A DNA stretch of 64,000 bases from an uncultured Methanoregulaceae archaeon (GTDB lineage Archaea; Halobacteriota; Methanomicrobia; Methanomicrobiales; Methanospirillaceae), in contig CAVTTL010000001.1 in assembly GCA_963737635.1 (NCBI GenBank), forward strand, positions 576,001-640,000, read 5' to 3'. Of this stretch, positions 18,211 through 63,744 are shown piece after piece. The stretch's first letter is position 1. Each line of letters begins with the position of its first letter. The position numbers were made by a program, and so were the translations under genes. The notes beneath the pieces were generated by a model that was given only the letters and a program-made list of their open reading frames with translations, was not told where the DNA came from and did no database searches.

Positions 18211-18268
18211 ACAGCTCACTGGGAGTCGAACCCAGACGTGAATGTCACCTTATCTGACACTTGAGCCT
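18211..18268 (-). ncRNA. tRNA-like element lacking an anticodon arm, at the ITS tRNA-Ala position
   Basis: AGGCTCA AGTGTCA-GATAAGG-TGACATT CACGT CTGGG-TTCGACT-CCCAG TGAGCTGT: acceptor-like stem, one hairpin with GG in the loop, canonical T arm. Confidence 0.7.
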
Positions 18269-18295
18269 TCTCATGTTGACACCAGCAATTTTACA

Positions 18296-47588: not shown

Positions 47589-48344
47589 TCACCCACCTCT
47601 CACTTTTGTCCCGCCATGATCCTTGCCGGCAAGGAAATCGCCAAGACGCGAAATCTCGAAGATATCCGCCCCGGTACCTGTTGTAGCAAGCTCGAGCAGT
47701 TCATCAATTTTCCCTTTCATTCCACCGGTTACATCGGTATGTGACGAGTTGCCGATCTGGAGAGTGTGCACGGTCTTCGGAGTGATCTCCGGGACCACGC
47801 GTCCTCCATCCAACACTCCCGGTACATCGGTGGCGAGTCCTACGCGGGTGCATTTCATCGCAACCGCAAGATAGCGCACGAGCTGGTCGCCCGACACTAT
47901 GCAGGCTCCACGTGAAAGGTCCATCACCACGTCACCGTGGATCACAGGAACCATACCAAGCGAAAGCATCTTGTCGAGATGCCTGGTCTCGAACGCGACC
48001 AGCCTGCCCTTGTCGGCAACACCCACATGAAGTGGGTGGATGCCGAGAGCCGGCACACCAGCGTCCCGGAGCGCACTGACCACCTCTGTATTAAGGGTAC
48101 TGACAACGCGATGGGTAATAGCGATCCCTTCAGATTGCCCGACCACGACACCCTGATCAAGCCGGTATCTCCGGGCCTCGGGGTGGCCGCAGGAGCCAGC
48201 ACCATGGACCACAATAAGACCTGAACCGGGTGCCCTGGCAACCGCCTCTGCGATGCCGGTTAACGCCAGATGGTTCACATGGCAGTCTGCACCCTTGTCT
48301 GTGATCACGCTGCCACCCAGTTTCAGAATGATGATGTCAGACAT
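47589..48344 (-). CDS. ipk: Isopentenyl phosphate kinase
   Basis: LKLGGSVITDK, HGAGSCGH, HGD, SGDQ, DVTGGMKGK; located between mvk and fni. Confidence 0.88.
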   Translation of the reverse strand: MSDIIILKLGGSVITDKGADCHVNHLALTGIAEAVARAPGSGLIVVHGAGSCGHPEARRYRLDQGVVVGQSEGIAITHRVVSTLNTEVVSALRDAGVPALGIHPLHVGVADKGRLVAFETRHLDKMLSLGMVPVIHGDVVMDLSRGACIVSGDQLVRYLAVAMKCTRVGLATDVPGVLDGGRVVPEITPKTVHTLQIGNSSHTDVTGGMKGKIDELLELATTGTGADIFEISRLGDFLAGKDHGGTKVRGG

Positions 48345-49206
48345 TCTTCTCCTTCCGGACCCCTTCAGTATCGATACCGGTAACAATCGCCCGCCCATCA
48401 CATGACTGAATTGCCTGTGCGACCCGGTGCCGGACTGGCTTTGCGCAGAGTGCAACCATGCAGCCCCCGCCGCCTGCCCCGGTTATCTTCGCCCCGAATG
48501 CCCCGGCCGATCGCGAAGCGAGCACCAGCCGGGAGAGCTGCGAATGACCGACGCCGAGAGCCTCGAGCAGCGCGTGGTTCATATTCATGTACCTGCCCAA
48601 TTCCTTCGGGTTACTTAAGTGGTGAATTGCGGCAAGGCTCACCCCTTCGATTGCGTTCAGAATCGGGTCGACTATCTCCGGGTTCTGTTTCTTTAAGTCC
48701 GCAACCTGTTCGACCATTTTTGCGGTGCTATGTGAAACCAGCGAATCTCCGATTACAATATGCATGTTCTGGGGTGCAAGACGCCTGCGTGATCCCCCGC
48801 AGATAAGTACGATCCCTCCATATGTGGAGACTGTAGTATCCGTGGGGCTGGCGCGCCCTTTCTGCACAGTTTTTTCGATTTCGAAAGCCATGTTTGCGAT
48901 GTCTTCCCTGCTTTTGCCGATAGTAAACTCATCGTTTATTGCCGAAAGAGTTGCGACCGTAACCGCCCCAGATGACCCAAGACCCGACGAACTGGGGATC
49001 TGCGAGTTGATATAGACGCTTCCGATTACGCCCATCGCATCAAAGCAACCGTCGATATAGGGGGATTTTGCACGCTGGGGACGCCGTGACTTTCTGACGG
49101 TTACGAAGACCCGGGGCTTGATTGCCATGGCGATGCCAGGCTTTCCGTATACTACTGCATGCTCGCCGAACAGAAATACCTTGCCCGGCGCACTCCACGT
49201 TGCCAA
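48337..49206 (-). CDS. mvk: Mevalonate kinase
   Basis: APGKVFLFGEHAVVYG, PSSSGLGSSGA, KITGAGGGG. Confidence 0.92.
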   Translation of the reverse strand: MATWSAPGKVFLFGEHAVVYGKPGIAMAIKPRVFVTVRKSRRPQRAKSPYIDGCFDAMGVIGSVYINSQIPSSSGLGSSGAVTVATLSAINDEFTIGKSREDIANMAFEIEKTVQKGRASPTDTTVSTYGGIVLICGGSRRRLAPQNMHIVIGDSLVSHSTAKMVEQVADLKKQNPEIVDPILNAIEGVSLAAIHHLSNPKELGRYMNMNHALLEALGVGHSQLSRLVLASRSAGAFGAKITGAGGGGCMVALCAKPVRHRVAQAIQSCDGRAIVTGIDTEGVRKEKNV

Positions 49207-63504: not shown

Positions 63505-63649
63505 TTCTGTTTCGTACGGTAAAAAAGATACGGAGTCCGACGCGGATTCGGGTGGCCGGAGGCATCAGGGTGAAACTGCCCGGTTATAGATATCCTTAAT
63601 ATTTGCAGGAGTCAATAAGAGAATAGCACTTTTTATAGGGTGCTGACAG

Positions 63650-63744
63650 ATGTAAGTCCGACGTGCCATTTCAGGCACGGCCTCAAACATGGCTTTGGGA
63701 TTACAGAGAGTCAGTAAACGTACTGCACTTTTCTGGACTTACAT
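63650..63744 (+). promoter_or_regulatory. Structured 5' leader of rps15 (candidate S15 r-leader)
   Basis: ATGTAAGTCC (63650-63659) pairs perfectly with GGACTTACAT (63735-63744); inner hairpin CGTGCC-ATTTCA-GGCACG; TTTTATA box just upstream and GGAGGT RBS downstream. Confidence 0.7.

Follow-up and report, generated by a model that had tools for sequence, protein, structure and literature searches.

A conserved tRNA-like element without an anticodon arm in place of the spacer tRNA-Ala in Methanoregula rRNA operons

We identified a 58-nt tRNA-like element without an anticodon arm in the 16S-23S rRNA spacer of a Methanoregulaceae archaeon, on the minus strand at positions 18268-18211 of the window (the whole stretch of 64,000 nucleotides that was analysed). 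On the evidence of spacer alignments, the element is homologous by position to the spacer tRNA-Ala(UGC) of related genera and derives from it. The initial annotation had read the element on the rRNA strand from the letters of the window, and the sequence at 18268-18211 agreed with that reading letter for letter. The surrounding operon, which runs along the minus strand in the order 16S, spacer, 23S, tRNA-Cys, 5S, is the sole rrn operon of the 2.46-Mb, four-contig assembly. Its features, in window coordinates, are as follows.

19902-19835, minus strand: 16S processing stem, 5' strand (leader), with a candidate BHB bulge at 19876-19874 (RNAduplex prediction)
19802-18335, minus strand: 16S rRNA gene (RF01959, 1579.1 bits)
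18334-18103, minus strand: 16S-23S spacer, 232 nt
18332-18269, minus strand: 16S processing stem, 3' strand, with a candidate BHB bulge AAA at 18292-18290 (RNAduplex prediction)
18268-18211, minus strand: the whole tRNA-like element, 58 nt, a relic of spacer tRNA-Ala(UGC) by sequence, fold, homology and covariance model R1 (66.2 bits)
18267-18262, minus strand: acceptor-like stem, 5' strand GGCTCA
18260-18242, minus strand: central hairpin, D-arm-like, with stem 18260-18255 (GTGTCA) / 18247-18242 (TGACAT)
18254-18248, minus strand: central hairpin loop GATAAGG, ending in GG at 18249-18248
18240-18236, minus strand: linker CACGT from hairpin to T arm, in the stead of anticodon arm and variable loop (alignment with full tRNAs)
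18235-18219, minus strand: T arm CTGGG / TTCGACT / CCCAG
18218-18213, minus strand: acceptor-like stem, 3' strand TGAGCT, followed by G18212 and T18211
18207-18173, minus strand: conserved helix GATGCACC...GGGAAGGGC, found 3' of the spacer tRNA family-wide (26 of 33 columns invariant among 24 distinct spacers)
18176-18103, minus strand: 23S processing stem, 5' strand, with a candidate BHB bulge at 18116-18114 (RNAduplex prediction)
18102-15178, minus strand: 23S rRNA gene (RF02540, 2911.1 bits)
15174-15093, minus strand: 23S processing stem, 3' strand (trailer), with a candidate BHB bulge at 15158-15156 (RNAduplex prediction)
15092-15021, minus strand: tRNA-Cys
14929-14807, minus strand: 5S rRNA

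The element was predicted to form three helices. RNAfold gave this shape as both the minimum free energy (MFE) and the centroid structure of the element alone, in agreement with the three-helix fold lacking an anticodon arm that had been proposed from the sequence, and gave it again by both measures inside the 177-nt spacer fragment between the predicted BHB sites. The central hairpin has six base pairs and an optional seventh, A18261-T18241. At the end of the acceptor-like stem, A18268 stands opposite G18212 (tRNA positions 1 and 72) in a conserved A.G mismatch; because the acceptor stem thus consists of six pairs and a mismatch, the combined acceptor/T helix has 11 pairs, not 12. The stability of the fold in this single sequence was unremarkable (z = -1.18; 26 of 200 shuffles were equally good), so the case against chance rests on comparison with relatives.

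Several other RNA features were observed in the window and its genome. The tRNA-Cys(GCA) gene at 15092-15021 (minus strand) sits between 23S and 5S, not 3' of 5S, and three further tRNA-Cys(GCA) genes are clustered at G000:C1:536175-539137, about 55 kb off, making four Cys genes in a set of 50 tRNAs. ARAGORN called a 96-nt tRNA-SeC at 47973-48068 (minus strand); since this call falls inside a 288-aa ORF (47589-48455, minus strand) and Rfam gave nothing for it at E<=1, the call is most likely spurious. The same program reported a tRNA-His with anticodon ATG (G000:C1:1924866-1924940) and a 90-nt tRNA-Ile(TAT) (1664868-1664957), which are possibly intron-containing tRNAs or calls with a mistaken anticodon. 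An S15-Methanomicrobia ribosomal protein leader (RF03137, 75.9 bits) lies at 63625-63704 on the plus strand.

The element was not recognised as a tRNA. ARAGORN called no tRNA in the 16S-23S spacer of the window, and the Rfam tRNA model (RF00005) gave no match to the element even at E<=10. It lacks the four arms of a cloverleaf. A decoding tRNA carries an anticodon stem with a 7-nt loop and a fixed U33, and the element has one hairpin only between its acceptor stem and T arm. Across related short elements the central loop was 6-9 nt long in most, with no fixed U33-like base; the 4-nt loops of three sequences (L034, L037 and L039) reflect a register misparsed by our recount script. The pair G3:U70 is the identity pair for alanyl-tRNA synthetase. 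It is retained, by alignment, in the full spacer tRNAs of other genera, and position 3:70 was G3:C70 in all 26 distinct short forms. The best Rfam match of the element was to mascRNA-menRNA (RF01684), at 17.1 bits against a gathering score of 42.5 (E 0.47), and membership of that family was rejected because the score lies far under the family threshold.

What the element does possess is the outline of a t-element: an acceptor-like stem that stacks on a T arm whose T loop is canonical, placed inside a precursor beside another RNA, here between the predicted 16S and 23S processing stems. It shares with tRNA pseudogenes an origin from a tRNA gene, seen in its positional and sequence homology to spacer tRNA-Ala. 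Its covariation and wobble-only changes, described below, are not those of a neutral pseudogene evolving without structural constraint.

Its derivation was traced through the family. We sampled 101 family genomes (>=90% completeness), 35 of which had a spacer match, and extracted and aligned 30 spacers. The 16S-proximal and 23S-proximal parts were collinear across all 30. Eleven spacers had the short form (the window, nine genomes of the same genus, and G013 of genus g13), and the remaining 19, from other genera of the family, had a full-length tRNA at the same place. Between short and full forms, the 5' acceptor strand, T arm, 3' acceptor strand, GATGCACC...GGGAAGGGC helix and flanks all aligned, with a single hairpin and short linker replacing the D arm, anticodon arm and variable loop. 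When run on whole loci, ARAGORN called a tRNA in none of the ten relatives' short-form loci versus all 19 other-genus loci, counts that apply to whole loci, as the same program called only three tRNAs in the 30 excised spacers. The 19 full-length calls comprised 15 Ala(TGC), two 'Thr(TGT)', one with an 8-nt anticodon loop and one degenerate 'Ser(AGA)'. Two claims of the initial annotation are borne out by these data: that the element stands in place of the spacer tRNA-Ala, and that the helix downstream of it is the one that follows spacer tRNA-Ala in relatives. In genera g10 (L021, L023, L028 and L029) and g6 (L031), an extra GC-rich hairpin of 25-50 nt separated the spacer tRNA-Ala, at its 3' end, from the GATGCACC helix.

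The spacers of most euryarchaea are described as containing an Ala-tRNA gene (PMC8339473), and the element resembles the euryarchaeal spacer tRNA-Ala(UGC) in position, flanks, homologous acceptor strands and T arm. Unlike that tRNA, it has no anticodon arm, carries G3:C70, has one hairpin of 5-7 bp for the D and anticodon arms together, and escapes tRNA finders.

The short form was found throughout the Methanoregula lineage. A scan of species representatives for a T loop linked to the 3' strand of the short type and to the helix downstream returned 20 records, all named Methanoregula sp. or Methanoregulaceae archaeon, which identifies the organism of the window as a Methanoregula. Four of these were the same contigs as loci of the genome sample (11 loci), leaving 27 assemblies with 26 distinct sequences; all 27 Methanoregula-type assemblies seen had the short form, and several were single-contig. 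In a tree of 2003 flanking rRNA columns, from which the spacer was excluded, the 11 short-form rows made up one side of a branch with an SH-aLRT of 100, and G013 was nested inside them. Path lengths in rRNA within this clade reached about 0.07-0.13. One clade with such path lengths indicates one old origin followed by long maintenance.

We built a covariance model, R1, from 26 short-form sequences. The 31 short elements scored between 58.5 and 74.7 bits with this model, and full spacer tRNAs stayed at or below 20.1 bits. Across a 151-genome sample of the order and a 151-genome sample of the phylum, strong R1 matches occurred only in genus g1 (nine of the 12 genomes sampled, plus the window) and in G013 of g13, and the element was not found outside these among the genomes sampled. 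The three g1 genomes without a strong match were those without any spacer match. Weaker R1 matches (26-33 bits) turned up in a second family of the order and in further families of the phylum. They were considered as additional short elements of 49-58 nt and rejected, all those checked being the 3' parts of ordinary tRNAs.

A check proposed in the initial annotation came out positive: tRNA-Ala(UGC) is present elsewhere in the genome of the window, as are the CGC and GGC isoacceptors, all of them outside the spacer. The stand-alone tRNA-Ala(UGC) gene, at G000:C1:724123-724194, adjoins the CGC gene. Of the 101 family genomes, 99 had a match to it at 88-100% identity; among those with a full spacer tRNA, at least 14 had one at 97-100% (for example G055, G017, G026, G015, G004 and G021). 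A stand-alone gene was thus available across the family, and translation could do without the spacer copy even before the origin of the Methanoregula lineage.

Sister genera also had spacer tRNAs whose anticodon loop is spoiled. The loop was altered in four of the 19 full-length spacer tRNAs (UGU twice, one 8-nt loop and one degenerate), in two separate clades. In genus g5 (G004 and G021), all six spacer tRNAs had an alanine-type body (G3:U70, A73) with the threonine anticodon UGU, and ARAGORN called the loci (L024, L027 and L087-L092) as tRNA-Thr. Such a tRNA is either kept out of translation or would insert alanine at ACA codons, a Thr-to-Ala mistranslation. In genus g18, L026 (G041) had an 8-nt anticodon loop that ARAGORN gave as 'tgct', L019 (G091), from a sister species, had a degenerate anticodon arm called as Ser(AGA), and L017 was an ordinary Ala(TGC). 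The acceptor stem, D arm and T arm were intact in the spacer tRNAs of both genera.

Sequence variation among the short forms followed the predicted helices. In the model-fitted alignment 86.3% of cells were paired versus 78.4% in shuffles, with a covariation score of 0.318 versus 0.190 (0 of 500 shuffles as high for either), although these and the shuffle controls below overstate significance because the sequences are kin. When the 3' partners were slid by 1-3 columns as a control, pairing fell to 41-56%. The acceptor helix was 95.5% paired over 26 distinct sequences and varied at three pairs in pair-keeping ways only (GC/GU, CG/UG and UA/UG), the exception being the innermost pair, which was missing in seven of 26. 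The T stem was 96.2% paired; its two outer pairs covary, and one of its pairs was CG in 14 sequences, UA in 11 and AU in one, with zero unpaired cells. The T loop read TTCGA(A/C)(T/C) with G53:C61 kept, the GGG/CCC of the T stem was invariant, and 11 of the 17 T-arm columns were invariant among 24 distinct spacers. The D-loop-like GG noted in the initial annotation was likewise invariant in the short-form alignment.

The central helix reached only 65.4% in the alignment count because two sequence classes sit one column off register, a split present in both the MAFFT and the model-fitted alignments. A recount was anchored on the loop GG; it optimised each sequence before counting and misparsed three, and gave 126 of 130 cells paired, with 17 distinct 5-bp stems among the 26 sequences. 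A perfect 5-bp hairpin with a loop ending in GG was present in 22 of 26, versus a mean of 0.62 and a maximum of 4 in 500 shuffles of the same regions. The MFE fold had three helices in 24 of 26 sequences (L037 and L043 favoured another fold), and RNAalifold on the unfitted MAFFT alignment recovered the acceptor and T helices and only part of the hairpin. Linkers in relatives were mostly 4-8 nt long (parsed range 3-12). In a conservation profile of 24 distinct spacers, from which two of 31 (L035 and L044) were dropped when their 23S-side anchor pattern went unmatched, the mean majority fraction was 0.60 for the hairpin and linkers, the lowest of the spacer, 0.89 for the T arm and 0.97 for the 3' half of the spacer. 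That the sequence changes fast while its pairing is maintained is a pattern independent of the shuffle figures. Comparative sequence evidence thus supports the view that the stems are kept by purifying selection and not left to random decay, as had been suggested at the outset, the signs being covariation, wobble-only changes and confinement to one old clade.

The element occupies a defined place in the predicted precursor. RNAduplex predicted a 16S processing duplex of -63.9 kcal/mol and a 23S processing duplex of -57.8 kcal/mol, both with the layout of a 3-nt bulge, 4 bp and a 3-nt bulge that resembles a BHB motif. The element abuts the foot of the predicted 16S stem without a gap, about 22 nt past the predicted BHB cut. 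The genome also contains an RNase P RNA (209.8 bits) and a tRNase Z (306.9 bits), the latter encoded at G000:C1:2319192-2320076. RNA libraries were searched as Logan contigs, which cannot show RNA ends; at most 0.29 of the sampled words matched, and four runs were aligned. Their contigs carried the 23S flank up to 18236 and then the short-type sequence of relatives, with no joints and no cover of 18240-18271 at 90% likeness. Contigs from three libraries joined the T arm to the downstream spacer, and one of them continued into the short-type hairpin of a relative. These contigs show only that such spacers occur in RNA libraries.

The best explanation, in our judgement, is a somewhat probable one: that the element is a t-element derived from tRNA-Ala, a mimic of the tRNA elbow that RNase P and tRNase Z would cut at its borders. 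The elbow of a tRNA is made by G18 G19 and the T loop; together with the acceptor/T helix it is what RNase P, tRNase Z and the CCA-adding enzyme recognise, and they have no need of the anticodon arm. With a stand-alone tRNA-Ala(UGC) serving translation, the spacer copy of the Methanoregula lineage could cease to decode, and a single ancestral deletion took out its anticodon arm and variable loop. Left over were an acceptor stem, a T arm and one D-arm-like hairpin with a loop ending in GG; the alanine identity pair was lost too (G3:U70 to G3:C70). We infer an elbow contact between the loop GG and the T loop in this remnant. Purifying selection has held the shape since, most likely through continued recognition by the enzymes that process tRNA ends. 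RNase P would cut on the 5' side at about 18268 and tRNase Z on the 3' side at about 18211, and these cuts would either divide the spacer at a point between the processing stems of 16S and 23S or make the excised spacer accessible to turnover.

Several points count against the t-element reading: the unremarkable single-sequence stability, the dispensability of the spacer tRNA elsewhere, the rRNA-releasing BHB cuts, the 11-pair helix, the seven of 26 sequences without the innermost acceptor pair, and the kinship of the sequences, which inflates the shuffle statistics. The spacer tRNA-Ala of Methanococcus maripaludis is described as being released by RNase P and RNase Z, and two of the three rrn operons of that species are described as having no spacer tRNA (PMC10515664), so a spacer tRNA is not universally needed. 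Cuts at archaeal BHB sites by EndA are described by the same source as already freeing pre-16S and pre-23S (PMC10515664).

A more far-reaching version, which is possible but which we regard as rather doubtful, extends the t-element reading to the family: spacer tRNA-Ala would have changed its job from decoder to ribosome-biogenesis element, with intermediates in sister genera, most strikingly the alanine-type spacer tRNA with anticodon UGU of genus g5, and Methanoregula at the end state. There a minimal 'elbow-only' mimic would be required for normal pre-rRNA maturation or spacer clearance, and it would perhaps leave the transcript as a small RNA tagged with CCA or CCACCA. Small RNAs can receive such ends through a CCA/CCACCA tagging pathway.

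Among explanations that dispense with cutting by tRNA enzymes, a purely structural role is unlikely but survives best. The element would then be an insulator or hinge between the processing stems, or a docking site for a ribosome-assembly or tRNA-binding protein, and its tRNA look would simply be inherited. This would suit its gapless position against the predicted 16S stem, its independent folding inside the spacer fragment, the free variation of the hairpin sequence provided that pairing holds, and the supply of rRNA-releasing cuts by the BHB sites (PMC10515664). However, a generic hairpin needs neither an invariant T-loop sequence, nor the GGG/CCC of the T stem, nor the loop GG. These residues are the ones from which a tRNA elbow is built.

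We consider it improbable that the element acts in trans as a stable, released small RNA of ~57 nt, perhaps CCA-tailed, in the manner of mascRNA, a role that would be compatible with RNase P and tRNase Z cutting. Its best Rfam likeness is indeed to mascRNA-menRNA and its conservation extends over the whole element, beyond the borders, but the 17.1-bit score is far below the 42.5 threshold, and its least conserved parts are the very ones expected to hold a trans-acting sequence, namely the hairpin loop and the linker. mascRNA and MEN-beta (RF01684) share with it a tRNA-like fold and a reduced anticodon region; they differ in being 3'-end products of eukaryotic nuclear lncRNAs, with no homology to the element.

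Equally improbable is a neutral relic, a tRNA pseudogene that has yet to decay and owes its conservation to short divergence or to hitch-hiking with a constrained spacer. Other parts of the spacer are highly conserved (0.97), so some conservation is expected anyway, all carriers belong to one clade, and the fold of the single sequence in the window is unremarkable in stability. Yet the hairpin has changed at most positions and stayed paired (17 stem variants; 126 of 130 cells), acceptor changes were wobble-compatible only, the T stem switched from CG to UA with one pair free of unpaired cells, and no carrier has lost the element across rRNA distances of up to about 0.1. On this sequence evidence, covariation above all, the neutral relic is disfavoured. 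Finally, an assembly artefact or an odd but functional decoding tRNA has next to no chance of being correct, since, although the window comes from a four-contig assembly with one rrn operon, the same architecture in 27 assemblies, single-contig genomes included, rules out the assembly deletion that the initial annotation had named as a possible refutation, RNA-library contigs join the T arm to the downstream spacer and in one case reach a relative's short-type hairpin, and there is no 7-nt anticodon loop, the loop length differing among sequences.

The t-element reading has counterparts in other systems. The t-element of Haloferax was reportedly described by Holzle et al. in 2008 and 2012. Like it, the Methanoregula element is a tRNA-like, non-decoding structure within an archaeal rrn transcript. 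A tRNA-like t-element that precedes 5S in Haloferax volcanii is described as being cut by tRNase Z, and t-elements as substrates of RNase P and tRNase Z that are used as processing signals (PMC4326828, PMC3296008, PMC7714728, PMC5627344); tRNA enzymes are described as thereby defining the ends of the neighbouring RNA (PMC4326828, PMC3296008). The two differ in place, the Haloferax t-element lying in the 23S-5S spacer and the Methanoregula element in the 16S-23S spacer. They also differ in that the origin of the Methanoregula element from tRNA-Ala(UGC) is traceable through relatives, the missing part being the anticodon arm. Cleavage has been shown for the Haloferax t-element and is proposed for the Methanoregula element. 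In plant mitochondria, t-elements or tRNA-like structures are described as being cut by RNase P/PRORP and RNase Z (PMC1920247, PMC10941002). They too are tRNA-shaped signals that set the ends of neighbouring transcripts; they differ in serving organellar mRNAs, in depending on a protein-only RNase P and in their independent origin.

Our literature search found no description of the element, or of a tRNA-less or tRNA-like Methanoregula spacer, outside subscription journals, where an earlier mention is possible. tRNA-like processing signals are already known; what is new is to see a spacer tRNA-Ala in the course of becoming such a signal, with intermediate states in sister genera and a minimal end state throughout a genus. 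The element explains reports by tRNA finders of 'no spacer tRNA' in Methanoregula. It could serve as a minimal natural substrate in work on archaeal RNase P and tRNase Z, and as a native t-element for RNA-processing tools in methanogens, as is described for the t-element of Haloferax (PMC4326828).

The element also bears on the role of spacer tRNAs in general. Why tRNA genes lie in the spacers of rRNA operons is an old question, and a hard one because the tRNA is also needed for translation. Methanoregula separates the two roles, with decoding done by another gene and the elbow shape kept genus-wide, so that the non-decoding role of a spacer tRNA becomes directly testable in this lineage. The conserved tRNA shape suggests that spacer tRNAs do a job beyond decoding.
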